Origin: a bacterium
GTDB lineage: Bacteria > Desulfobacterota > JAPLJL01
Length of the DNA: 64,000 nucleotides
Direction of reading: 5' to 3'
NCBI GenBank assembly: GCA_028713675.1
Contig: JAQTNV010000016.1
Coordinates: forward strand, 54-64,053
The position numbers and the translations under genes were made by a program. Below the pieces are notes generated by a model, which searched no databases, was not told the DNA's origin, and saw nothing but the letters and a program-made list of their open reading frames with translations. Below, in pieces: positions 6,939 through 58,190 of the stretch; position 1 is the first letter of the stretch, and each line of letters starts with the position of its first letter.

Positions 6939-6939
6939 T

Positions 6940-6964
6940 GTAGGGCCTGATCCCCGATCAGGCC
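6940..6964 (+). repeat. GTAG-type REP hairpin
   Basis: GTAG GGCCTGATC CCC GATCAGGCC, 9-bp perfect stem. Confidence 0.8.
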
Positions 6965-7065
6965 GGAGAACGTTAGTCACCGTCCCCTTACCAGCCTGCC
7001 GCTTTTATAAACCCGAAAAATACGATTAAATTCATTTCTCCGTCATATGCAGGCGGCCTTTTTTT

Positions 7066-7163
7066 GTAGTTTGCCGATTCATTTATCCCGACAAAGGAGG
7101 GACGTGTCCCGTCAAGGGCGGGATCGGCGGTTTTCAAAAAAGCCCGATAGATCGGGCAACTAC
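7066..7163. repeat. Inverted REP pair (REPIN-like); first REP interrupted by a 35-bp insert
   Basis: gtagtttgccgattcatttATC[7088-7122]ATCggc, then gcccgatagatcgggcaactac at 7142-7163. Confidence 0.7.
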
Positions 7164-7247
7164 ATAATATCCGAAAATATTAACTGCATTTTTCGGGATA
7201 AAAGAAAGGAAAATTTAAGAAAGAATGGTTCGTTCGGGGAACGAACC

Positions 7248-8244: not shown

Positions 8245-10146
8245 TTACCAGACAGGAAACCCTAGCGAAAAAACCACCAGGCAATATTCGTGAAGAACGG
8301 GGAGGACGAATTTGATTCTCTCCCCTTCCTCACTGTAGTTAAGCACACCCCCCGCCCCTCCCGGTTCCATCCACTCCAGTCCATACGAGCCGGACGGAGG
8401 CAGCCGGAGGGAAATGTTTATCCCTTCCTGCGGGACAAATCCAGACCCCTGGGAGTAGTTATAGTTGATCAGGTGGAGAAAGATTCGATCACTCGACCAG
8501 CCGGCTACGATCCCGATTTCCCGGGGAGCATCGGTCACGATCAAAGGATCGGAAACGGCGGCGGTAACCTGGTTCACGAACTCAGCTCGGGCGTCGGGAA
8601 ATTTGCTGTCCTTGCGATCCCGGAGCGACAGGTCCTTCATTTCCACAACCTTCCCGCCCTGGCTCCGGTAGTCGTTAATCACCCCGGTTTCCGCTTCGGA
8701 AAAGGAAAGGGGCGACGGCAAGATCACCGTCTTGAATTTTTCCAGCCCTAAAAGCGACAGGCCCCGTCCCGGGACGAAATCCTCATCCCCGACATAAACC
8801 ACCTCGAAAGGTATGTGCTCCTCTTCCAGGATCTCGGCGGCAGAAAGAAAAGCGAGATGAGAGGCTTCGGCGATCGACCAGGGGGTGGCATAGCCATAGT
8901 CGAAAAATTCATTCAAAACAGTGCGCTGATGATAGACCAGGCCGACTTCGGCGAGCAGTTCCGTCCCGAGGACCAGGTCCTGGTTTTCCTGAAAGAACTT
9001 GGTATAGGGCCTGATAATCTCCGGGGGAGCGGTCAGCCCGCCGGAAACCGTTTCCTGCCCTCCTCCGAAAACGTAGGCCTGATAAGGAATCAGCATTCCC
9101 TCCCCCGCGCTGGCGGCTTCCGCCATCCAATGCGTGAAGATATTCCAATCCATACTGTTTTCCTGGAAATCCAGCAGGACTCGGATATCCGGAAAGATAA
9201 AAGCCGGTTTTTTCGGATCCATCGCCCGGGCCAGGAGGTGCACCCCCAGGTGCTTCCCCAGGGGATTTAATTCGAGAGGATACTCATAGACCAGGAAATC
9301 CAGGTCAGGGATAAAAACCTGGCGGTGAGCGCTTAAAAGCACGGTATTAGCGGTGAAAGGAACCTGGCGTCCGGCATAATTGTTGGCGTGGCCGACAAGT
9401 CCTTTCAGCTGCTTTTGGCGGGCTTTTAACTGGAATCGGACAAATTCCCGGCGAAGATCAGGATTGGGGTCATCTTCCAGTTTCGACGCCCCCTTATCCT
9501 GGAGATAACTTTTATAATTAAATTCATCAAGCTGACCGATCCCCAGGCGAAAATTGATTTCAGGCGGCGAAAAATTGTCTTTCAGATACTGCCGGAAACC
9601 ATCCATACAGCTCGGGCAAAACCCGGCCAGGTAAAGATGCCCCGCGATCCCCTCCACTTCGTCGATGTCAATCGCGTCAGCTTCCCCGTGGAGATGTTCT
9701 TCCACCCGCGCGTTGAGAAAATCATTCCATTTGGAATTGTTATTGCAGGGAAGATAGGGGGAATCGGGAAAAATCCACAAAGCATAGGCCTTGGACCCGG
9801 CAAAAGTCTCGCAGGCGGTTTCGCTCAGCAGCTCGGGGTCATCGATAACACCGGGACTCCCCTGCATGGTGGCGAAGTTCGAGGCCACGATGATTCCCTT
9901 CCGATGGAGTTCCCGGACATATTGATGTTCTTCCGCGTTGAATCCCCCGTGATAGACCGACCAGGCCAGCCCAGTGCCTCCCACTGCTTCGATATATTCC
10001 AATGGCGGACGGCCGTAAATGAAAAAATTCATCCCGTTCAGCCAATCCCGGCCGGGATGGTATGATTTTCCGCCCGGGCAGGAATAAAACAGGAGAGAAG
10101 AACCGGCAATTAAGCAGCCTGCAATCAATTTATTCAGATTTTCCAC
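8245..10146 (-). CDS. Putative lipoprotein with a glycoside-hydrolase-like barrel and a class-I GATase-like trimerisation domain
   Basis: N-terminal hydrophobic stretch ending in LLFYSC; DAIDIDE, FCPSCMDGFRQYL, HIPFEVVY...FKTVILP, IFLHLINYNY resemble GH42-like architecture. Confidence 0.55.
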   Translation of the reverse strand: MENLNKLIAGCLIAGSSLLFYSCPGGKSYHPGRDWLNGMNFFIYGRPPLEYIEAVGGTGLAWSVYHGGFNAEEHQYVRELHRKGIIVASNFATMQGSPGVIDDPELLSETACETFAGSKAYALWIFPDSPYLPCNNNSKWNDFLNARVEEHLHGEADAIDIDEVEGIAGHLYLAGFCPSCMDGFRQYLKDNFSPPEINFRLGIGQLDEFNYKSYLQDKGASKLEDDPNPDLRREFVRFQLKARQKQLKGLVGHANNYAGRQVPFTANTVLLSAHRQVFIPDLDFLVYEYPLELNPLGKHLGVHLLARAMDPKKPAFIFPDIRVLLDFQENSMDWNIFTHWMAEAASAGEGMLIPYQAYVFGGGQETVSGGLTAPPEIIRPYTKFFQENQDLVLGTELLAEVGLVYHQRTVLNEFFDYGYATPWSIAEASHLAFLSAAEILEEEHIPFEVVYVGDEDFVPGRGLSLLGLEKFKTVILPSPLSFSEAETGVINDYRSQGGKVVEMKDLSLRDRKDSKFPDARAEFVNQVTAAVSDPLIVTDAPREIGIVAGWSSDRIFLHLINYNYSQGSGFVPQEGINISLRLPPSGSYGLEWMEPGGAGGVLNYSEEGERIKFVLPVLHEYCLVVFSLGFPVW

Positions 10147-10245
10147 AGGATATATCTCTTCTGCCCCAAATGATGCTTTTATTTATTGAAAAGGCATTAT
10201 AATTATAAAGATTTGTAAATTAATTTAATATCAAGGAGAGAAACC

Positions 10246-10800
10246 ATGAAGATCCATTTCTTCCAGCAATTTCCGGGAATCGAGCCGGACAAACTCAATG
10301 AAATCTGGTCGGACCCGGAAGTAATCGTCCGGATCGTCAAGGCCCTCCCCAATATCCAGGAGAGGGAGATCCTCGAGGAAAAACAGGACGAGAAGTTTCT
10401 CCGCCGGAAAGTCCGTTACCTGGCCAAGGGCCCGATTCCGGCCTTTGCCGAAAAAGTCCTGAGACCCGACATGTTATCCTGGGTCGAGGAAACTGTTTTT
10501 GACAAGAAAAACATGGTCTATCAGGTAAAATGCGTTCCGCATTTTTTCGCCGACCGGGTTGAAAACGAACTTACCATCCGGCTTCTTCCCGATGGAAAAG
10601 GCGGAACCCTGAGGGTTATCGAAGGCGTACTCAATTTGAAAGTCCCCTTCGTGGTCCGGGGCATGGCGGAGCATCTGGTCAACCGGTACCTGCAGGACAA
10701 TACCGAAAAGGAATATCAGGTCCTGAAATTCGAGGTGGAAAATTACCTGAGCAAGAAAGCCTCGGCCCGGAAAAAAACCAAGGAAAGCCGGAAAGCCTGA
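10246..10800 (+). CDS. DUF2505-like (START/SRPBCC-fold) protein
   Basis: AGGAG RBS; IPAFAEKVLRPDMLSWVEETVFD...G.TLRVIEG.L.LKVPFV pattern. Confidence 0.7.
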   Translation: MKIHFFQQFPGIEPDKLNEIWSDPEVIVRIVKALPNIQEREILEEKQDEKFLRRKVRYLAKGPIPAFAEKVLRPDMLSWVEETVFDKKNMVYQVKCVPHFFADRVENELTIRLLPDGKGGTLRVIEGVLNLKVPFVVRGMAEHLVNRYLQDNTEKEYQVLKFEVENYLSKKASARKKTKESRKA

Positions 10801-12109: not shown

Positions 12110-13264
12110 TCAATCTTTGAGTACATCCCTCGCGATGATCATCCGCTGGATCTCGCTGGTCCCTTCCACGATCCGGAACATCCGGGCATCCCGGTAAAGG
12201 TGCTCGATCGGCGCCTCTTTTATGTATCCGGTCCCGCCGTGGATCTGCAGAGACCGGTCGGTAACCCGGCAGAGCATCTCGCTGGCGAAAACCTTGGTCA
12301 TCGAGCACAGGGCATCCACCTTCTGGCCGGCGTCAAAACACGAGGCGGCGTCGATAAGCATGCACTTCGATGCGTAGATATCGGTGGCGCTGTCGGCCAG
12401 CATCCACTGAATCGCCTGGTTCTCGGCGATCGGCTTCCCGAACTGGACGCGGATCTTGGCGTAATCCCGCGCCAGCTTGAGTGCCCGCTCGGCAAACCCG
12501 ATCATCGAGGCCGAAAGGGTGAGCCGTCCCTCATTCAGGCATTTCATCGCCGTCCGGAAACCCTGCCCCACCATCTTGGGCCCCCCGATGATATTTCCTT
12601 CCGGTACCCGGCAATTTTCGAAGATAACCTCGGCCGGCTTGCTTCCGACGTTTCCCATCGCCTTGAATATCTTCCCGATGGTCAGGCCGGGGGTGCCCTT
12701 TTCCACGATAAAAGCCGTGATCCCTCCCCGGGCACGCTTCTCCTTATCGGTTAAGGCCAGGACGGTGAAAACCGAGGCCCGGGGGGCGTTGGTGATGAAA
12801 TACTTGGTCCCGTTGATCACCCAGTCATTCCCATTTTTCACCGCGGTGGTGGAAATGGCCGCGGCATCGCTTCCGGCCCCCGGCTCGGTCAGGGCGAAAC
12901 TGGCCATTTTTTCACCCGAGGCCAGGGAAGGAAGGTATTTTTTCTTCTGCTCCTCGGTTCCATCAAAAAGGATACCCTTGCAGCCGATCCCGTTATTGGT
13001 CGTGATCTGGGCGCGGACCGCGGCGTTGGTTTTGGAGAGTTCCATCAGGATCAGGCAGTAATCCAGGATTGAAAGGCCAAGGCCTCCGTATTCGGTCGGG
13101 GTGGTAACCCCGAAAAGCCCCAGCTGGCAAAGGCCTTTATAAATGTTTTCAGGGATCTCGCCTTTTTCCTCGATCTCCATTTCGACCGGGTAACATTCCT
13201 TTTCAACGAACTTGCGGACGGTTTCCAGAAACTGTTTCAGCTCGGCAGATGGCTCAAAAAACAT
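12110..13264 (-). CDS. Acyl-CoA dehydrogenase
   Basis: ASFALTEPGAGSDA, INGTKYFITNA, RVQFGKPIAENQAIQ, QIHGGTGY, RIVEGTSEIQR. Confidence 0.96.
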   Translation of the reverse strand: MFFEPSAELKQFLETVRKFVEKECYPVEMEIEEKGEIPENIYKGLCQLGLFGVTTPTEYGGLGLSILDYCLILMELSKTNAAVRAQITTNNGIGCKGILFDGTEEQKKKYLPSLASGEKMASFALTEPGAGSDAAAISTTAVKNGNDWVINGTKYFITNAPRASVFTVLALTDKEKRARGGITAFIVEKGTPGLTIGKIFKAMGNVGSKPAEVIFENCRVPEGNIIGGPKMVGQGFRTAMKCLNEGRLTLSASMIGFAERALKLARDYAKIRVQFGKPIAENQAIQWMLADSATDIYASKCMLIDAASCFDAGQKVDALCSMTKVFASEMLCRVTDRSLQIHGGTGYIKEAPIEHLYRDARMFRIVEGTSEIQRMIIARDVLKD

Positions 13265-13285
13265 GATTCCCCCCTTTTAAAATTT

Positions 13286-13446
13286 CGATTCTAGTTTCGA
13301 GTTTCTAGTTTGACGTTAAACCATTTTTTTCCGATTATTTCAACTAGAAACCAGAAAACCCAAACTCAAAACTTATTATATTTTCTGTTCTCTGGTCACT
13401 GGTTTTGATTTTTAACTCGAAACTAGAGACTGAAAACTCGAAACTG
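13286..13446. repeat. Inverted heptamer arrays (TTTCGAG... followed by ...AAACTAG/AAACTCG)
   Basis: ctagtttcgagtttctagttt, then aactagaaaccagaaaacccaaactcaaaact, then taactcgaaactagagactgaaaactcgaaact. Confidence 0.85.
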
Positions 13447-13448
13447 TT

Positions 13449-14072
13449 TTAAAACCCCATTTCCTTCCCGATCACGATTACCTCGATCTGGGACCGCATG
13501 GGAGCCCTGGTCAGGATCACCAGGGCCCGGCAGATCCGGGTAGGAAGGTCGCAATCCTTGCAGACCCCGGCCTTCACGCAGGGATTGGGCAGATTCAAGC
13601 TCTTGGCCCGCAGGGGCCCGGCCACCTCCCGGATCCGGCGGATCGCCGCTTTCCGGTCGGCCACGATTTTATTGATTCCGACCACCACCATGACTTTTTG
13701 CGGGCCAAAGATCAAAGCCGCCACCCGGTTGCCAACCCCGTCCATATTCACGATTTCACCCTCGCGGGTGATCGCATTGGCGCTGGTGAGAAACAGGTCG
13801 CAGGTCAGCTGGGCCTTCCGGATAACCTGGTCCTCCGCCGGGCTCAGCCCCTCCTGCCAGTGATCGTAAAGTTTTCCGGCTTTTTTCCGGATTTCCGGGA
13901 TCACGCCGAGATCACGAATGGTCTGGGAACCACCCACCCCGACCCCGCTCCCCGGCTCAACCCGGGAAAGCAGGTAGGAACCGGCCTCTTCGGGGGTGGG
14001 GAAAAAAACGGCCTGGTAGCCATTTTTCCGTAGGATTTTCAGAAAGGATTCGATTTCCGAAGGCAAAGCCAT
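13449..14072 (-). CDS. LUD-domain (LutC/YkgG-like) lactate utilisation protein
   Basis: GVGGSQTI, CDLFLTSANAITREGEIVNMDGVGNRVAALIFGP, VGINKIV. Confidence 0.88.
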   Translation of the reverse strand: MALPSEIESFLKILRKNGYQAVFFPTPEEAGSYLLSRVEPGSGVGVGGSQTIRDLGVIPEIRKKAGKLYDHWQEGLSPAEDQVIRKAQLTCDLFLTSANAITREGEIVNMDGVGNRVAALIFGPQKVMVVVGINKIVADRKAAIRRIREVAGPLRAKSLNLPNPCVKAGVCKDCDLPTRICRALVILTRAPMRSQIEVIVIGKEMGF

Positions 14073-18032: not shown

Positions 18033-18084
18033 GAGCTCCTCCTTGGATAGGTGACTATTAATTATTCAATTCCAGAATCTATTT

Positions 18085-18149
18085 GTAGTTGCCTCATTTA
18101 TGAGGCTTCCAAAGTTTTACTTTCTTAGCCCGATGAATCGGGCAACTAC
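18085..18149. repeat. Inverted GTAGTTGCC REP pair (REPIN-like)
   Basis: gtagttgcctcatttatgaggc at 18085-18106 and gcccgatgaatcgggcaactac at 18128-18149. Confidence 0.8.
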
Positions 18150-18197
18150 ATTAAATATTGAGCAACCTTGGAAAACCCCGCCCCTGCCTTATTATTC

Positions 18198-33930: not shown

Positions 33931-34400
33931 AAAGAGCACAGCGCAAAAGGCATCCTCCTACGCAAAGAAGCTTCGGAGGACAGATCGAGCAAAGCACATG
34001 GGCAGTAGCTTTACCATTGACGATTGCAAATTGACGATCTCATAAAACACATTGACGATTTACGATTGACGATTGTAGATTAAGGGAAAGAATCATCTGA
34101 ATCATCTGAATCATCTGAATCATCTGAATCATCTGAATCATCTGCTATTCTTTATTCATAATTCATCGTTGTTATTATTCTTGGTTTTAATCCGTCAATC
34201 TACAATCTGCAATCGTCATTTCTTCTTTGGTTTTCACTCGTCAATCGTCAAGTTTTGCAAGGCTTCCCTCGGCCACAATGCCTCGGGATCTAATCGAAAA
34301 GACTTGCCAGACATTCCGTTTCTCTTGCTTTTCATTCGTCAATCCTTCGACTTCGCTCAGGACAGGTCGTAAATCGTCAATCGTCAATTCTTTTTCATTC
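33931..34400. repeat. Large intergenic repeat block with nested micro-elements
   Basis: TTGACGA arrays and inverted TCGTCAA arrays; AATCATCTG x6 at 34091-34144; inserts at 33954-33983 and 34345-34366; composite REP at 34257-34312. Confidence 0.9.
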
Positions 34401-37251: not shown

Positions 37252-37326
37252 TCTTATCTCTGGTCTCTGGTCATTGTTAGCAAAGGGCAAAGGGCAGAGA
37301 GCATAGGGTTTAATTCGAAACCTTTT

Positions 37327-37452
37327 TGTCTCTTGTCTCTTGTCTCTTGTCTCTTGTCTCTTGTCTCTTGTCTCTTGTCTCTTGTCTCTTGTCTCTGGTC
37401 TCTGGTCTCTGGTCTCTGGTTAACTCGAAACTCGAAACCCGAAACCCGAAAC
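37327..37452. repeat. TGTCTCT x10 + GGTCTCT x3, followed by an AAACTCG array
   Basis: Direct count at 37327-37417, then taactcgaaactcgaaacccgaaacccgaaact overlapping the cheW 3' end. Confidence 0.92.
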
Positions 37453-42170: not shown

Positions 42171-42329
42171 TTGGTCTATCTCGTCTGTCTGGTTTATTTG
42201 GTTTATTTGGTTTCTCTGGTTTATTTGGTTTAACCCGAAACTATTCGCAAGGCTGAAGCCTTGCCCTACTTTCTGGTTTCTCTAGTTTCTTTGGTTTTCA
42301 TTCCGCAATCCGCAATCCGAAATCCGCGA

Positions 42330-46265: not shown

Positions 46266-46304
46266 TTACTCCTTAATTTTCTCTGATATGTCTGGTCTTT
46301 TTTA

Positions 46305-46632
46305 GCAAGGAGCAGGGAGCATGGCGCATAGGGTTTACCCCAAAACCAGAAACCTGGATTCCTGCTTTCCTTCGATCATACTCAGGACAAGTCGCAGTAA
46401 TGACGTTATGATTTTTCATTCGTCTTTTATTGTTTGGTTTTCACTCCGCATATCTCAGCAAGGTTGAAGCCTTGCCCTACATTTCCCCTTGGACCCTCGA
46501 ACCCTATTTTCTTTCTTCGCAGCCTAAAGGCTGCGGCTACCTTGGACTCTATTTTTTCTCTGCTCTTACCCTTGAACCCTGGAACCCTGTTTTTTTTCCA
46601 TTCCGCAATCCGCATTCCGCAATCCGCAATTA
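46305..46632. repeat. Intergenic block: heptamer arrays, hairpin with 22-bp insert, GTAG REPs
   Basis: ctggattcctgcttTC[46370-46391]TCgcag; gcaaggttgaagccttgccctac at 46458-46480; gcagcctaaaggctgcggctac at 46519-46540; tccgcaa array. Confidence 0.85.
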
Positions 46633-46635
46633 CCG

Positions 46636-49137: not shown

Positions 49138-49227
49138 TTCCCACCCCCAATCTGGTTTATCTGTTTTTTTTAGTTTCTTTAGTTTCTTTGGTTTTCATTC
49201 CGCAATCCGCATTCCGCAATTTATATG

Positions 49228-52701: not shown

Positions 52702-54051
52702 TTATTCGAACTTGTATTTTTTCAATTTATAAACGAGCGTGGTGCGATGTATACCCAGGTTCTTCGCGGCTAGGGATTTGTTGTTTTTGCACATCTTAAG
52801 AACATTTTGAATGTGTGCCTTTTCCGAACCTTCTAAGGATAAATCGGCTTTCCCGGTGGAAATTTCCCGGCTACTTACTCTCTTTCTGACCTCTTCGGGT
52901 AGATGTCCGGCCTGGATAACCCCTTCCGAGCAAATCAAGACCGCCCGCTCGATAATATTTCGCAATTCCCTGATATTCCCCGGCCAGTAATAAGAATGCA
53001 ATAAAACTTCCGCCTCTTCGGAAATTCCCGAAACGTTATGTTTGAGGGACCGGTTGAATTCCTCCAGCATGATCCGGGCTAATGGCAGGATATCTTCCCG
53101 CCTCTCCCGGAGCGGCGGAAGCCGGAGCGGCATTACCTTCAAGCGATAATAAAGATCTTCGCGGAACTTCTTCTCCTTGACCATTTCATCTAAGTCGATG
53201 TTGGAGGCGGCCATGATCCTGACATCCGCGTTGATATTTACCACCCCCCCGAGCCGCCGGAAGGACTTTTCCTCGATTACCTTGAGAAGCTTGGCCTGGA
53301 CGGAAAGCGAAAGATCCCCGATCTCGTCCAGAAAAACGCTTCCCCCGGCGGCCACTTCCAGGAGGCCGCGCTTCTGGCTTCTGGCATCGGTGAAAGCCCC
53401 GGCTTCATGGCCGAAAAGCTCGGATTCCAGCAGGTTCTCACTCAGGCCCGCGCAGTTGAGGTCCACGAAGGCTCTTTCCCGCCGATCGCTTAAATCATGG
53501 ATAATCCGGGAAATCATTCCTTTCCCGGTTCCCGTTTCCCCCAGGATTAATACGTTCACGGAGGATTTTTCGGAAAGTAATTTGATGCCACGGTAAATCT
53601 CCTCGGGCTGGCGGAGTTTAGAATATGTTTCCTTGCCTTCCAGCTTGGAAAGCTTTTCCCGGAGATACTGAGCCTCTATGCGCCGGGCGTAATTTTCCAG
53701 GCAGTTATTCACAATCACCAGCAGGGAAGCCAGCTCGATCGGCTTGAGGACGAAATTGTCCGCTTTCAGCTTGATCGCTTCGACCGCGGTTCTCACGTCC
53801 CCGTAGGCGGTAATGATAATCACCGCCTGGCCCGGAGAAATAGCCTTGATCTGCGACAATACTTCGAGCCCGGACAGGTCAGGAAGCTTGAGATCCAGAA
53901 GGACGATGTCTACGTGCCGGCTCCGGCAAATCTCGATGCCGCTTTTCCCATCGGCGGCGGTTTCGACGTTGAACCCCTGGGAGACGAAATACGTCTTCAG
54001 GTTCCGGCGGATGGAATCTTCATCGTCAACGATCAGAATGGTGTTGATCAT
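52702..54051 (-). CDS. Sigma-54-dependent REC-AAA+-HTH activator (AtoC-like)
   Basis: GETGTGKG, ESELFGHEAGAFTDA, FLDEIG, FREDLYYRL, WPGNIREL, Fis-type HTH. Confidence 0.95.
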   Translation of the reverse strand: MINTILIVDDEDSIRRNLKTYFVSQGFNVETAADGKSGIEICRSRHVDIVLLDLKLPDLSGLEVLSQIKAISPGQAVIIITAYGDVRTAVEAIKLKADNFVLKPIELASLLVIVNNCLENYARRIEAQYLREKLSKLEGKETYSKLRQPEEIYRGIKLLSEKSSVNVLILGETGTGKGMISRIIHDLSDRRERAFVDLNCAGLSENLLESELFGHEAGAFTDARSQKRGLLEVAAGGSVFLDEIGDLSLSVQAKLLKVIEEKSFRRLGGVVNINADVRIMAASNIDLDEMVKEKKFREDLYYRLKVMPLRLPPLRERREDILPLARIMLEEFNRSLKHNVSGISEEAEVLLHSYYWPGNIRELRNIIERAVLICSEGVIQAGHLPEEVRKRVSSREISTGKADLSLEGSEKAHIQNVLKMCKNNKSLAAKNLGIHRTTLVYKLKKYKFE

Positions 54052-54255
54052 ATGAATGCTCGTTTCGAGTTTCGGGTTTCGAGTTTCGAGTTCAGATTAA
54101 ACCCAATAATATTCAAATAACAGAGGCCATGAGTTCGAAACATCGTTTGTAATTTATTAGTCATATGAATGCTCGTCTCGAGTTTCGAGTTTCGAGTTTC
54201 GAGTTCAGATTAAACCCAAAAATAATCAAAAAACAGAAGTTATGAGTACGAAACC
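54049..54255. repeat. 113-bp-period tandem duplication containing a heptamer array and the start-codon context
   Basis: catatgaatgctcg...gagttcagattaaaccca...gag..cgaaac occurs at 54049 and at 54162. Confidence 0.9.
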
Positions 54256-54645
54256 TCATTTGTACTTGTTACCTTTTATTTCAGATCTCCGCAAATAATT
54301 CATCAAGCCGCCAGCCAATTTCCCCACTTCAGTTACCTTAACAAATAGCTGGTTAAAAGAATCCTGATTCAGATAACCCTGATCAAGGGCAACATAGAGT
54401 TGGCTTTTAACTTCACCGCTAGAACCTTTCGAAACGGAGAGAAATTGGATGAATTCCTTGGTCCCACCTCTCTCGAAACCTTCGGCTATGTTTGAAGTAA
54501 TTGAAACACAAGCTTTTCTCAATTGCTCTCGCAAACCGATATCTCTGTTGAATTTGCCTATATTTGACAAGGCGTAAATTTCATTGGTAAGTTCCCGACC
54601 TTTCTGCCAGGCTTCAATATCTTCGAAACATTTAAAGGTCGCCAT
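54256..54645 (-). CDS. Four helix bundle protein (23S rRNA IVS-protein / Avd-like family)
   Basis: FEDIEAWQKGREL, LREQLRKACVSITSNIAEGFERGGTKEFIQFLSVSKGSSGEVKSQL. Confidence 0.93.
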   Translation of the reverse strand: MATFKCFEDIEAWQKGRELTNEIYALSNIGKFNRDIGLREQLRKACVSITSNIAEGFERGGTKEFIQFLSVSKGSSGEVKSQLYVALDQGYLNQDSFNQLFVKVTEVGKLAGGLMNYLRRSEIKGNKYK

Positions 54646-54669
54646 CTTCTTTCTCCCTTCTTCCTTATT

Positions 54670-54767
54670 AGTTTCGGGTTTGTAGTTTCTAGTTTCTGGT
54701 TAAAAACTTTAAAACATTTATCATCTCTTTTATTTAACTCGAAACTCGAAACCCGAAACTCGAAACT
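54670..54767. repeat. Inverted heptamer arrays upstream of the four-helix-bundle gene
   Basis: agtttcgggtttgtagtttctagtttctggtt, AT-rich spacer, aactcgaaactcgaaacccgaaactcgaaact. Confidence 0.9.
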
Positions 54768-57700
54768 ATTTTATCGGTAGCTCCACGATAAACTTCGCTC
54801 CTTTTCCCGGTTCTGACTCCACCCGGATGTCGCCGCCGTGATCCAGGATGATCCGCCGGGAGATCGCAAGGCCCATTCCGTAGCTCCCCTTTTTGGTGGT
54901 GAAGAAAATCTCGAATATCTTATCCTTCATCTCCTTCGGAATCCCCGGGCCCATGTCCTTCATCGAGACAATCAGCGTTTTTCTCTTTTCGTCGGCCCTG
55001 GCTTCGATCTCGATGACATCCCCCTTCCCGGAAACCTCGATGGCGTTCTGCAAAAGGTTGATAAACACCTGGATCATCTCGCCCTTTTCCACCATCACCG
55101 GAGGCAAGTCCGGCGGCATCTTCTTTTCGACCTTTATTCCATTGACCTTCATTAATCCCGAATTCAGGGAAGCAACCTCATCCACGACTTCCCGCATGTC
55201 TACGGGGGCGAAAGCAATCTCGTTCAGAGCGCGATGGCGGCCGTAATCCAGAAGCTGTCTGACCAGGTAATCCATCCGGATGGTTTCCCTCAAAATAATT
55301 TCCAGGGTTTCTTTCTGAGCGCCCCCCAGTTTCAGGTGGTCGTGCAGGATCTCAATCCCGCTGGAAATCGCGAAAAGCGGGTTTTTGATCTCGTGAGCGA
55401 TATTACCGGCGATTTCCCCGATGGCGGCCATTCTCTCGGATTCCTTCAACCGTTTTTGGAGCTTTTTCTCCTCAGTGATATCGCGGGTCACATGGATCAC
55501 CCCATAACACTTATTTGCCGCGTTGAACATCGGGGTAGTCGTAATCAGGTAATCTCTCTGCAATCTCTCCGAGCGGACCATGTAGTTGCAGGATTTTCCC
55601 TCGGAAATACACCGCGATTGTCGGCAATATTCCGGGGGCGCGTCGGTCTTATGAATAAGGCGAAAGCATTGCTGTCCGATGATCTCGGGAAAGGAAAGCC
55701 CCAAAAAATCCGCCAGGGCCTGGTTGGCGCGGAGGATCCGGTAATTCAGGTCCTGCACCATGATCATATCGGGAATAGAGTCGAAAGTGATTCTCCAGGC
55801 GGTGGAGGCGTTTTTGATCATTTCCTCGGCTTGGATCTGTTCGGTAACGTCATGCAGGATCATCCCCAGTCCATCTCCTACCTTGAAAATGTCTATACAA
55901 ACGTATCTAAATTCCCCCATTGATACAGATATTTTCTGCCTCGACCGGTGAAAAGGCTTTCCCGTTTTCAATACATCCAGGTATTTGTCGAGCATATCGG
56001 AATCCCGAATCGTGGGAGAAACTTCGGTTAATTTTTTCCCGATCGCTTCCCGGCGGGAAAAGCGTTCGGCCAGCTCCGGGGATAGTGCCCGGTTGAAATC
56101 GACCAGGTTCAAATCCTGATCGAAAATATAGAAAAGGTCCGTCGCGGCGCAGGAAAAACGGCTCCATCGTTCCGTGATCACCTTTTTTTCCTCCTGAAGC
56201 CTTTTTAGCTCGGTGATGTCGACCACCGCGCCTTCAATGTGTTCCGTCCCCGGTATCATCTTGACCGAATAATTGACCCAGATTGGCGAGCCGTCGGCCT
56301 TTACCCCCCTGGCCTCGTAACCCGTGATCTCGCCGCTTTCTTTCAGTTTCCTGAGCAATCGTCTCTGATCGTCCAGATCGTTAAAATGCCGGGCCACCGA
56401 ATAATCCCGCAGGCATTCTTCCCGGCTTTTATAGCCGAGCATTCCGGCGAACCGCTCGTTGCATTCGATCACCTGCCCGTCGGTAATCCGGGTCCGGTAC
56501 AAGCCCACCTGTGCGTTATGGAAAAAGTTTCGATACTTCTCTTCGCTCAACCTTAGCTTATCTTCCGCCTGCTTAAGATCGGTGATGTCCTGCATAGTGC
56601 CAACAATCCGGTATGGGTGGCTTGATTGGTTACGGTATGCGACTGCGTGCTGGTTAATATGCTTGATCGTACCATCCGGCAGAAGAAGCCGAAACTGGAT
56701 TTCGGCATGATCTTCTTTTTCTAAAAGCAGATTGATAAAAGAATTGTTTTTATTCCGATCATCTGGATGAATCAAAGCCACGATACCATCGAAGGTGAGT
56801 GGTATTTCCCGGCCTAACCCGAACATTTGATATACCGTCTCAGACCAAGTCAATTTGTTGCCTTCAACATCCCAATCCCAGTTCCCGAGTTTGGCGATAT
56901 CCTGGGCCTGGACCAATTTATTTTCGTTCTCCTTTAGTATTTCCTCCGCCCGCTTGCGCTCGGTGATGTCGCGGGAAAAAACAAAAAGTCGGCCGCCGCT
57001 GATATCCATGAAATTGACGCTGATTTCGAAATCTATAATTTTTCCGTCTTTATGGCGGAGTTTGGTTTCAAAACGATCCCCTCCCGTTGCGATGATTTTT
57101 CTGATGCGAGCGCCGGTTTCTTCCGGTTTTTCCTCAACCACGATATCCGAAATCTTCATTCTCAGAAGTTCGCTACGGCTGTAACCAAGCATGCGGGAGC
57201 AGGCGTCGTTCGCCTCTTGAATATTTCCCTGCAGATCGTCAATCCAAAATCCGTCTATCGAAGTGTCAAGAATGGCCTTATATATCTCCTCGCTTTGGCG
57301 GAGACTATTTTCGGCCCGTTTCCGCTCGCCGATATCCCGGGCCAGGCTCAAAACCGATACCACCCGGCCGTCTTCAAAAATCGGTACCGCGTTTATTTCC
57401 ATTTCAATGATTTTGCCCTGGGAGTTTCGGGTCTTCAGATTCAGGCCATAAATCGGATGGCCCTGGCGCAGTTCATCAGCGAGGCGAATCAACTCTTCCT
57501 GGTTGTCTCCGGCAAAGTAATCCAGGTAACTCTTCTTTTTGAGCTCCTCGAGCGACACACCCAGAATTTTGAGCACCGCGGGATTCGCATCCAGAAAATT
57601 CCCATTCACATCATTGATGCAAATGAAATCCGGGCTGTTGTTGAAAATAAAGCGATATCTTTCCTCGCTTAGCCTCAGTCTCTCGGCAATGTTCTTTTGC

Positions 57701-57840
57701 TCAGTGATGTTTAATTTTAGTGCGCTTAAATCCCGGGGGGGCTTCTTCATTTTTACGGCCGTTGACTTCACCAAACGCGGCTGCCTACGAGGCCTGCCTT
57801 TCTTTATTTTTTTTCTGTTTTTTTTCTTTTTTTCCGGCAT
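54766..57840 (-). CDS. Cytoplasmic multi-PAS histidine kinase
   Basis: About 6 PAS domains; NIAHEIKNPL; NLLQNAIE; GMGLAI. Start MPEKKKK at 57840. Confidence 0.93.
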   Translation of the reverse strand: MPEKKKKNRKKIKKGRPRRQPRLVKSTAVKMKKPPRDLSALKLNITEQKNIAERLRLSEERYRFIFNNSPDFICINDVNGNFLDANPAVLKILGVSLEELKKKSYLDYFAGDNQEELIRLADELRQGHPIYGLNLKTRNSQGKIIEMEINAVPIFEDGRVVSVLSLARDIGERKRAENSLRQSEEIYKAILDTSIDGFWIDDLQGNIQEANDACSRMLGYSRSELLRMKISDIVVEEKPEETGARIRKIIATGGDRFETKLRHKDGKIIDFEISVNFMDISGGRLFVFSRDITERKRAEEILKENENKLVQAQDIAKLGNWDWDVEGNKLTWSETVYQMFGLGREIPLTFDGIVALIHPDDRNKNNSFINLLLEKEDHAEIQFRLLLPDGTIKHINQHAVAYRNQSSHPYRIVGTMQDITDLKQAEDKLRLSEEKYRNFFHNAQVGLYRTRITDGQVIECNERFAGMLGYKSREECLRDYSVARHFNDLDDQRRLLRKLKESGEITGYEARGVKADGSPIWVNYSVKMIPGTEHIEGAVVDITELKRLQEEKKVITERWSRFSCAATDLFYIFDQDLNLVDFNRALSPELAERFSRREAIGKKLTEVSPTIRDSDMLDKYLDVLKTGKPFHRSRQKISVSMGEFRYVCIDIFKVGDGLGMILHDVTEQIQAEEMIKNASTAWRITFDSIPDMIMVQDLNYRILRANQALADFLGLSFPEIIGQQCFRLIHKTDAPPEYCRQSRCISEGKSCNYMVRSERLQRDYLITTTPMFNAANKCYGVIHVTRDITEEKKLQKRLKESERMAAIGEIAGNIAHEIKNPLFAISSGIEILHDHLKLGGAQKETLEIILRETIRMDYLVRQLLDYGRHRALNEIAFAPVDMREVVDEVASLNSGLMKVNGIKVEKKMPPDLPPVMVEKGEMIQVFINLLQNAIEVSGKGDVIEIEARADEKRKTLIVSMKDMGPGIPKEMKDKIFEIFFTTKKGSYGMGLAISRRIILDHGGDIRVESEPGKGAKFIVELPIK

Positions 57841-57859
57841 TGCTCTCTCTCTAAATTTC

Positions 57860-58190
57860 TCTGGTCTATGAATGGCATAGGGCAAAGGGCATGGCGCAAA
57901 GAGCAGGGAGCATGGCGCAGGGAGCATGGCGCATATGATTTAACCCCAAACCAGAAACCTGGATTCCTGCTTTCCTTCGACCATACTCATGACAAGTCGC
58001 AGGAATAACTTTATAATTTTTCATTCGTCAGATTTTTGGGGCTCACTCGTCATTCGTCAATCGTCACTTCTTCTTCGGTTTTCATTCGTCATTCGTCAAT
58101 TCTTTTTTGTTTTTCATTCCGCAATCTACAATCCGCAATCCGCAATTCTTTCTAACTCGAAACTCGAAACTAGAGACTCGAAACTAGTAT
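57860..58190. repeat. Intergenic repeat block, paralogous to 46305-46420
   Basis: gggagcatggcgca arrays, ctggattcctgcttTC[57975-57996]TCgcagg, tcgtcat/tcgtcaa, tccgcaa and aaactcg arrays. Confidence 0.85.

Follow-up and report, generated by a model that had tools for sequence, protein, structure and literature searches.

What is a lone gene for a small four-helix-bundle protein doing between a sensor kinase gene and a sigma-54 activator gene, with inverted arrays of heptamer repeats on both of its sides? The question is raised by a 64,000-nt stretch of a bacterial contig from the Desulfobacterota lineage JAPLJL01 (GenBank assembly GCA_028713675.1, contig JAQTNV010000016.1, positions 54 to 64,053; hereafter the window), in which the gene, encoding a protein of 129 amino acids (129-aa), occupies positions 54256–54645 of the minus strand. 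We find that the locus is one copy of a cross-phylum class of cassettes, in which a gene of the PF05635 family, with its own ribosome-binding site, lies exactly between the stop and start codons of co-oriented genes. The arms of the cassette are inverted arrays of about 31–32 nt, five heptamers each. In the subfamily of the 129-aa protein the heptamer consists of a fixed GTY core and four fast-changing positions, in that of a 117-aa protein the core is GATT, and the outermost arms are predicted to be able to pair in the operon transcript as a 31-bp stem that encloses the cassette. Taking this anatomy jointly with a mechanism, argued by analogy, in which a ring-shaped protein would read the arrays, we hold the combined account with moderate confidence.

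Relatives in other phyla lie between complementary arms

A protein scan that kept one genome per species returned relatives of the 129-aa protein at 80 loci (50–66% identity); judged by shared neighbours, some 48 distinct gene junctions are involved. The hosts belong to Acidobacteriota, Verrucomicrobiota, Nitrospirota, Planctomycetota, Bacteroidota, Chloroflexota, Ignavibacteriota, Pseudomonadota, Thermodesulfobacteriota and others, more than 10 phyla in all. We scored arms as an ungapped inverted repeat between the two 150-nt flanks of a gene, with the other genes of the same loci as controls; RNAduplex flank energies separated targets from controls weakly in GC-rich genomes, and the inverted-repeat score was used instead. 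A score of at least 14 was reached by 59 of the 80 relatives (74%) compared with 11 of 692 control genes (1.6%), and at nearly every locus a heptamer array upstream of the open reading frame (ORF) was mirrored by its reverse complement downstream. Period-7 arrays lay within 150 nt upstream of the gene at 46/80 loci and downstream at 43/80, against 0.078 per kb elsewhere, a concentration of about 50-fold beside the gene; the initial period-7 detector was strict and missed degenerate arrays. It is these relatives in other genomes, not the window itself, that make the flanking significant. Within the window, two-sided flanking is not significant (roughly P 0.1, by our own estimate), because arrays of the GTTTCGA family alone occupy about a third of its junctions.

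The arms of the relatives also agree in orientation, position and length. The GTY arm is on the 5' side and the RAC arm on the 3' side (69:2 upstream, 67:1 downstream), both neighbouring genes are co-oriented with the cassette at 62 of 73 loci, the first core lies a median of 5 nt past the upstream stop codon, and the median arm is 32 nt long. The number of in-phase GTY cores has a sharp mode at five, reached by 36/80 arms upstream and 32/80 downstream; four cores, the next most frequent number, were counted in 13 and 11, respectively, and control windows never held more than three.

Within arrays, unit positions 1–3 (G, T, Y) vary by 1–2%, compared with 8–20% for positions 4–7, which also differ between loci. 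Cassettes whose proteins are 94–99% identical (L013/L015 and L061/L068) have different spacer positions around a fixed core, and a one-base difference in each unit of both arms separates the orthologous cassettes of L053 and L060. Among other arrays in the same 20-kb loci, 31 of 103 matched the unit of the cassette with at most one mismatch, where locus permutation gave 11.3 ± 3.9. A single Terriglobia locus (L014) holds two PF05635 cassettes 2.5 kb apart, at 12775–13460 and 9983–10387, with arms GTCAGAA/GTCGGAG and GTTCAAA, respectively; copies in one genome thus need not share spacer positions, and both retain the GTY core.

The core follows the protein subfamily

At the same kinase/regulator junction, the related contigs L096 and L100 carry a PF05635 gene for a 117-aa protein (E 1.1e-17) in which BLASTP found no similarity to the 129-aa protein. 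The arms of this gene are ATTGCGG/CCGCAAT in L096 and ATTGACG/CGTCAAT in L100. With ten plasmid-borne relatives of the 117-aa protein added (from Planktothrix, Gloeocapsa, Nostoc, Chlorohelix and others), the GATT core was found in 21 of 33 arms of the 117-aa type and GTY in 3/33. For the 129-aa type, by comparison, 139 of 140 arms had GTY and none (0/140) had GATT. More distant family members have yet other cores, for example GTG, GTA and AATT.

Genes of the 117-aa type on plasmids L105–L108 and L111 (Planktothrix, Gloeocapsa, Chlorohelix, Pseudanabaena) are wedged, co-oriented, between the genes of defence operons. The neighbours on plasmids are DrmD/PglX, DUF1156/Swt1-HEPN (in a cyanobacterium and a member of the Chloroflexota), helicase/N6-methylase, and a cas1-adjacent position. 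Viral contigs yielded no match for the 117-aa type and one distant match for the 129-aa type. The latter, on an IMG/VR contig (L104:450-1250), is a 41%-identical four-helix-bundle gene with GTGNNNA arms and their complement, and it appears to lie within a methyltransferase-like reading frame extending to either side of it.

Presence, absence and replacement at one junction

The clearest view of the cassette as a unit comes from two near-identical strains, L084 and L100, which are sisters in the regulator protein tree (support 100/99). They share 98.2% identity over 1355 nt in the regulator gene and 93.3% in the 3' end of the kinase gene. Homologous sequence breaks off at the kinase stop codon and begins again 3 nt short of the regulator ATG; the intervening 830–870 nt are unrelated, comprising the 129-aa gene in one strain and the 117-aa gene in the other, each with different arms. 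The exchanged unit is the whole stop-to-start content, arms included. In L103, where the regulator is 61% identical and the kinase core clearly related, the two genes overlap by 29 nt with no cassette between them, which makes the cassette an insertion into a formerly coupled kinase/regulator pair. L103 is thus a relative of the kind that the first-pass annotation of this DNA had proposed looking for, with kinase and activator adjacent and the gene absent. A third type of arm occupies this junction in L096.

The same annotation had suggested that gene and arrays form one mobile module, and the frequency of arms in relatives relative to control genes, the spread over about 48 junctions, the swap between strains and the cassette-free L103 all support this. 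It had also named two findings that would speak against a module, other four-helix-bundle genes lacking arrays and synteny conserved across distant relatives, and we found neither.

Closer relatives differ in smaller ways. In L001/L083 the 129-aa gene is 96% identical to that of the window and is followed by one tail unit; upstream there are 44 extra nt, largely another GTY array, which sit at the inner arm (window positions 54671–54701). In L084 the gene is 97.7% identical. The tail unit of about 113 bp (last ORF codons, spacer, five-core arm and CATATGA) has one copy in L001/L083 (L001:5381-5476), two in the window and three in L084 (1414–1714), and the cassette of L096 has higher-order tandem repeats of its own, of 53 bp and about 120 bp. 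Two contigs with a regulator homologue, P0127 (81% identical), have a 129-aa gene before the regulator and a 121-aa PF05635 gene after it. Metagenome contigs hint at an approximately 88%-identical relative in run X3 that is devoid of the 129-aa gene, in a comparison dominated by repeats of other loci. Between the regulator and conserved downstream sequence, L100 is about 1.9 kb longer than L084 (L100:7353-9283 versus L084:3066-3112); the extra stretch has a gene for an AAA_14/DUF4143 ATPase and is array-rich at its bounds.

Anatomy of the cassette in the window

Domain searches and the mapping of four 31-nt arrays upheld the layout first described, that of a gene between a PAS kinase and a sigma-54 activator with arrays on both sides. 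All features lie on the minus strand. Upstream is the gene for a PAS/HisKA/HATPase_c sensor histidine kinase (54766–57927), whose TAG stop codon (54766–54768) overlaps the first repeat unit. The outer 5' arm (54736–54766), 31 nt with five GTY cores, begins inside this stop codon and has the sense-strand sequence GTTTCGAGTTTCGGGTTTCGAGTTTCGAGTT. It is followed by an A/T-rich loop of 34 nt (54702–54735) and by the complementary inner arm (54671–54701), which has five cores in RAC orientation on the sense strand; together, 54671–54701 and 54736–54766 make up a gene-less junction hairpin of a type also present at other junctions. The leader of the 129-aa gene (54646–54670) contains the Shine-Dalgarno sequence GGGAG at 54653–54657, with the ATG 7 nt on.

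The 3' side of the cassette is built of tail units. The gene-side copy (54161–54264) comprises the last ORF codons, a spacer of about 50 nt with a GGGTTTAATCT motif at 54207–54217, a five-core RAC arm at 54175–54205, and GAGCATTCATATGA. The regulator-side duplicate (54048–54160) is 89% identical, with its five-core RAC arm at 54062–54092 and its motif at 54094–54104. The presence of two downstream arrays is thus explained by a 113-bp tandem duplication (54048–54264, 89% identity). The gene for the response regulator, with receiver, sigma-54 AAA+ and Fis-type helix-turn-helix domains (52702–54051), starts at an ATG 10 nt past the last arm. All four arrays belong to the GTTTCGA/TCGAAAC family, and each is 31 nt long with exactly five in-phase GTY cores.

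When the 751-nt stretch was folded as RNA, 54736–54766 paired with 54062–54092 in a 31-bp stem, in both the minimum-free-energy and the centroid structure (z-score −6.5), and this predicted stem encloses everything between the kinase and regulator genes. No sigma-70 promoter-like or intrinsic-terminator-like site was found at the cassette. At the far end of the kinase gene, the first approximately 29 codons of the listed ORF (57840–57927) cross GCAGGGAGCATGGC-type repeat arrays, so that the real start is probably further downstream than 57927, at a Met at about 57840.

The 129-aa protein

The protein matched PF05635 with 111.5 bits (cutoff 33.8, E 2.9e-32, residues 8–110) and TIGR02436 with 102.4 bits (cutoff 24, E 1.5e-29). 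By these profile matches and by its predicted structure it clearly belongs to the PF05635/TIGR02436 family (S23p, the protein of intervening sequences (IVSs) in 23S ribosomal RNA (rRNA)), with a four-helix-bundle fold. Its isoelectric point is 9.1. An AlphaFold model built on 60 relatives has four long helices and a mean predicted local distance difference test score of 92.8. It superposed on XCC0516 (PDB 2GSC) with template modelling (TM) scores of 0.82/0.92 and a root-mean-square deviation of 1.4 Å, and on BT_0352 (2RLD) with TM scores of 0.75/0.86; XCC0516 was also matched by sequence (E 1.4e-16, 36–37% identity). The accessory protein Avd (4DWL) was more distant, with TM scores of 0.70/0.83 and 11–15% identity, and ribonucleoprotein structures of diversity-generating retroelements (DGRs) also superposed distantly. 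The bAvd model PF22296 gave 22.2 bits, below its cutoff of 40. Five chains (A–E) are present in each of 2GSC, 2RLD and 4DWL, and XCC0516 is described as a homopentamer in the form of a toroid (PMC4990558). By analogy with XCC0516, BT_0352 and Avd, we infer that the 129-aa protein would likewise be a pentameric ring.

The ratio of nonsynonymous to synonymous substitution rates (dN/dS) of the gene is 0.03–0.08 among the window, L001 and L084, compared with 0.20 for the adjacent regulator. The ORF is intact in all relatives examined, and the substitution rates indicate strong purifying selection on the gene. In the comparison of the window with L001, the dS of the gene (0.28) is half that of the regulator (0.56); the cassettes may share a more recent ancestor, or their RNA may be constrained. 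A search with hidden Markov models found no second PF05635 gene in the 64-kb window.

A ring that may read the arrays

A possible mechanism is suggested by the trp RNA-binding attenuation protein (TRAP), a ring of 11 protomers that binds RNA triplets separated by 2–3 nt and whose binding competes with alternative RNA structure. As a mechanistic analogy only, the number of protomers in the ring would in both cases equal the number of short cores parted by non-conserved spacers; TRAP differs in its unrelated fold, in its 11 protomers and in its triplets with spacers of 2–3 nt. In the mechanism we propose, a pentameric ring would read one five-core arm, with one core per protomer, much as TRAP reads spaced triplets. 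Binding of the ring would compete with arm–arm pairing, and this competition could control RNase III-type processing of the IVS-like stem as well as the coupling of expression among kinase, cassette and regulator. The arms, together with arrays of the same class elsewhere, could in addition act as homology or recognition sites through which cassettes are gained, swapped and lost.

The form in which the arms would be read may be RNA or DNA. Mismatches between arms were G:U in 95 cases and A:C in 80 (p 0.29), and with no excess of G:U, selection for pairing in the sense RNA is not demonstrated; the complementarity of the arms may be kept at the DNA level. Both arms hold the cores equally well. 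The topology with the GTY arm on the 5' side, being that of an inverted repeat, holds on both strands and so does not identify the sense RNA as the active form.

Besides this lack of a G:U excess, several observations weigh against the account given here. The window holds 38 arrays (21 with GTY cores, 12 with GATT cores and 5 others) and only one PF05635 gene. No remnants of the ORF or spacer of the cassette were found at other junctions of the window, where BLAST matched arrays only. Near the cassettes of relatives, 70% of other arrays have a different unit. The sample of 80 loci is biased, being made up of the relatives nearest to an armed gene. The swap between L084 and L100, finally, could be ordinary homologous recombination via the flanking genes.

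These observations bear on two further suggestions of the first-pass annotation. The first, that the protein is the trans factor for the arrays, is favoured by the subfamily-specific cores and by a number of cores, five, that equals the number of chains in solved relatives, as far as sequence comparison goes; the single gene in a window with 38 arrays of several classes speaks against it. The second, that array-only junctions are gene-less derivatives of the cassette, is in keeping with their five-core format and with short non-array motifs that they have in common with the flanks of cassettes, and is opposed by the missing remnants. A composite of arm, spacer and mini-hairpin that lies upstream of the 117-aa gene in L100 has a gene-less counterpart, 83% identical over 125 nt, downstream of the L084 regulator. 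On such sequence evidence, arrays travel along with short non-array sequence, which argues against pure in-situ slippage; gene loss is not thereby proven.

Alternative explanations

The cassette might instead be passive, its arms being about 31 nt of portable homology by which host recombination shuffles the contents of junctions, with an unrelated role for the protein. A length of about 31 nt is near the minimum homology for RecA. The exchanged block has the stop and start codons as its exact limits and includes the arms, same-class arrays are present at many junctions, the higher-order tandem repeats of 113 bp, 53 bp and about 120 bp show frequent array-mediated rearrangement, and the scans of window genes returned no transposase-type or reverse-transcriptase family, all as a passive cassette would have it. 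However, passivity leaves unexplained why PF05635 genes, of all genes, sit between arms across phyla, why a subfamily-specific core is kept while spacer positions drift, and why the length is sharply that of five cores, and we think this explanation unlikely.

A second alternative places everything at the level of RNA. The arms would be an RNase III site that parts the kinase and regulator messages, and the ORF a dispensable passenger, as has been proposed for the IVS of Coxiella. The predicted 31-bp stem around the cassette fits this view, as does the precedent of rRNA IVSs, in which an RNase III-cut stem surrounds a decaying ORF. A passenger should not, however, be intact in the relatives examined, nor show a dN/dS below that of the neighbouring regulator, nor have a good Shine-Dalgarno sequence, and the arms lack the G:U excess of a stem selected as RNA; we regard it as quite improbable.

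If the gene were instead an ordinary resident, the arrays would be junction filler spread genome-wide by in-situ slippage and unrelated to it, and every small gene of this genome would have such flanks. About one in three window junctions has an array of the same family, most have some array, and the gene is syntenic in sister species, all of which agrees with this. Against it stand the concentration of arrays beside the gene in relatives from array-poor genomes, the large excess of complementary sides over control genes, a core specific to the protein subfamily and the swapping of junction content as a block between near-identical strains. The array concentration, the complementary arms and the subfamily core have already largely refuted this explanation, which is very unlikely. 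The idea that the locus is a DGR remnant or satellite, with the protein acting as an Avd alongside a reverse transcriptase encoded elsewhere, draws on the Avd-like fold, the superposition on DGR ribonucleoproteins and the weak PF22296 match, and we set it aside as extremely improbable given a score below the family threshold, the low identity to Avd, the absence of reverse-transcriptase families among 41 window genes and of any listed beside the cassette in the related contigs examined and ten plasmid loci.

Relation to known elements

The remark in the first-pass annotation that there is no rRNA or reverse transcriptase here holds for the window: an Rfam scan gave no RNA family and no rRNA, and among 41 predicted genes Pfam scans detected no reverse-transcriptase, transposase or integrase families. 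The gene tables of the related contigs examined and of the ten annotated plasmid loci likewise list no reverse transcriptase beside the cassette. As for an autonomous element, the window genes scanned include no recombinase or transposase of the cassette's own, and no target-site duplication is visible at the L084/L100 boundaries. As for a 23S IVS, the locus has a terminal-repeat stem around an ORF (31 bp) and is not located in a 23S rRNA helix. The features of an armed cassette are all present, namely complementary period-7 arrays around an ORF, a co-oriented stop/start junction, and presence, absence and replacement at orthologous sites.

The nearest published case is the IVS of Coxiella, which has a 28-bp stem with a variable number of GACAGAT heptamers before the S23p ORF and is excised by RNase III (PMC4990558). 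Like the ORF-bearing 23S IVSs of Coxiella burnetii and Leptospira (PMC4990558), the cassette has a PF05635 ORF of about 120–130 aa within a terminal-inverted-repeat stem of about 28–31 bp, tandem heptamers of variable copy number beside the ORF, and a site in a transcribed unit that the insertion does not destroy. Unlike them, it lies at a junction of a protein-coding operon and its arms are regular five-unit arrays; the Coxiella ORF is decaying and probably untranslated, in contrast to the ORF here with its purifying selection and good ribosome-binding site. What is new beyond the known IVS kind is the swap at one junction, the dichotomy of cores and the five-core rule.

XCC0516 and BT_0352 resemble the 129-aa protein in sequence, fold and, if it is indeed a pentamer, number of chains; we know of no function or nucleic-acid ligand for either. 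Avd (4DWL, 8UBE) shares the four-helix-bundle fold and the pentamer and acts with a reverse transcriptase on structured RNA, but it differs in its low identity, in the bAvd score below threshold and in the absence of a reverse transcriptase from the window. Repetitive extragenic palindromic (REP) sequences and REPINs with their REP-associated tyrosine transposases (RAYTs) are similar in that a gene lies between inverted short repeats that are also found gene-less between genes, and in that repeat type co-varies with protein lineage. In contrast to the cassette, for which we saw neither target duplication nor transposition, a RAYT is a recognizable HUH enzyme; PF05635 proteins have, to our knowledge, no catalytic motif.

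Intergenic heptamer arrays have been described in several bacteria, with the units GGGAATC in Xanthomonas and GGGGAYT in Nostoc (PMC4692102) and TAACTGA in Beggiatoaceae (PMC4679880), and as heptanucleotide sites of 4–5 units in Geobacter metallireducens (PMC2700814). These published arrays, including the cyanobacterial short tandemly repeated repetitive (STRR) sequences, have the same period of 7, a preference for 4–5 units, a position a few nt from stop or start codons, co-oriented neighbouring genes and a G/T-rich strand after the stop. As we read the published units, the GATT core is present in GGGAATC and GGGGATT, and a GTY core on the complementary strand of TAACTGA. The published arrays differ in that the papers deal with them in isolation, viewed as G-quadruplexes or as sites at which some unknown regulator acts. 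PF05635 genes have been noted inside cas operons (PMC3936711), and the literature searches made found no link between heptamer arrays and PF05635 genes.

A wider reading, which we put forward tentatively and consider doubtful as a whole, would join these elements. PF05635 pentamers might be core-specific readers, with GTY read by the 129-aa type, GATT by the 117-aa type and other cores by others, and the cassette might be the autonomous form of a widespread element. Gene-less five-core arrays would then be the STRR, GGGAATC/GGGGATT, TAACTGA and Geobacter sites, and 23S IVSs would be copies inserted in rRNA. In its genome, the protein would serve as the trans-acting factor for all arrays with the same core, controlling RNA processing or translation at operon junctions and promoting the spread of arrays.

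Other arrays in the window

Tandem Repeats Finder and our own scans showed that most gene junctions of the window have heptamer arrays, which belong to several families. Thirteen of the arrays, among them the four that flank the gene, have a length of exactly 31 nt and five cores. The near-palindrome GGGTTTAAYCC adjoins or follows arrays of the GTY class, including both tail copies of the cassette (15 matches compared with 4.2 expected); its sites in the window are at 2785, 31412, 35603, 37306, 42226, 46331, 54094, 54207 and 63634. Arrays of the GATT class are followed by TGAAAACCAAAGAAGAA (7 matches compared with 0.39 expected), with window sites at 34220–34236, 42284–42300, 46427–46443, 49181–49197, 58068–58084 and 58100–58116. 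The composite that precedes the 117-aa gene in L100 contains the same sequence, as does its gene-less counterpart after the regulator in L084.

One long array (37326–37417), with (TTGTCTC)x13 grading into GGTCTCT units and 14 in-phase GTY cores, lies between two chemotaxis genes. Short REP-like hairpins with GTAG/CTAC tags, such as GGCCGATCGGAGATCGGCCCCTAC, occupy gaps together with heptamer arrays at 980–1142, 6939–7247, 18033–18197 and 46266–46635.

Implications for the S23p family

S23p and related four-helix-bundle proteins have been known since the 1990s, with structures contributed by structural genomics; among the IVS-type proteins of this group we know of a role for Avd only. If the account of an armed cassette read by a pentameric ring is true, the function of IVS-type S23p proteins and the reason why bacteria of many phyla retain heptamer arrays of 4–5 units right beside stop and start codons would be joined in a single testable system. 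Subfamily-specific cores, and the correspondence of five cores to five chains, give a concrete prediction that can be checked at the bench. If the arms are processed as in rRNA IVSs, they would amount to a widespread, unannotated layer of post-transcriptional punctuation in operons, among them two-component systems such as the one in the window and the defence operons in which plasmid relatives lie between genes of DISARM/BREX type, DUF1156/Swt1-HEPN genes and helicase/methylase genes.

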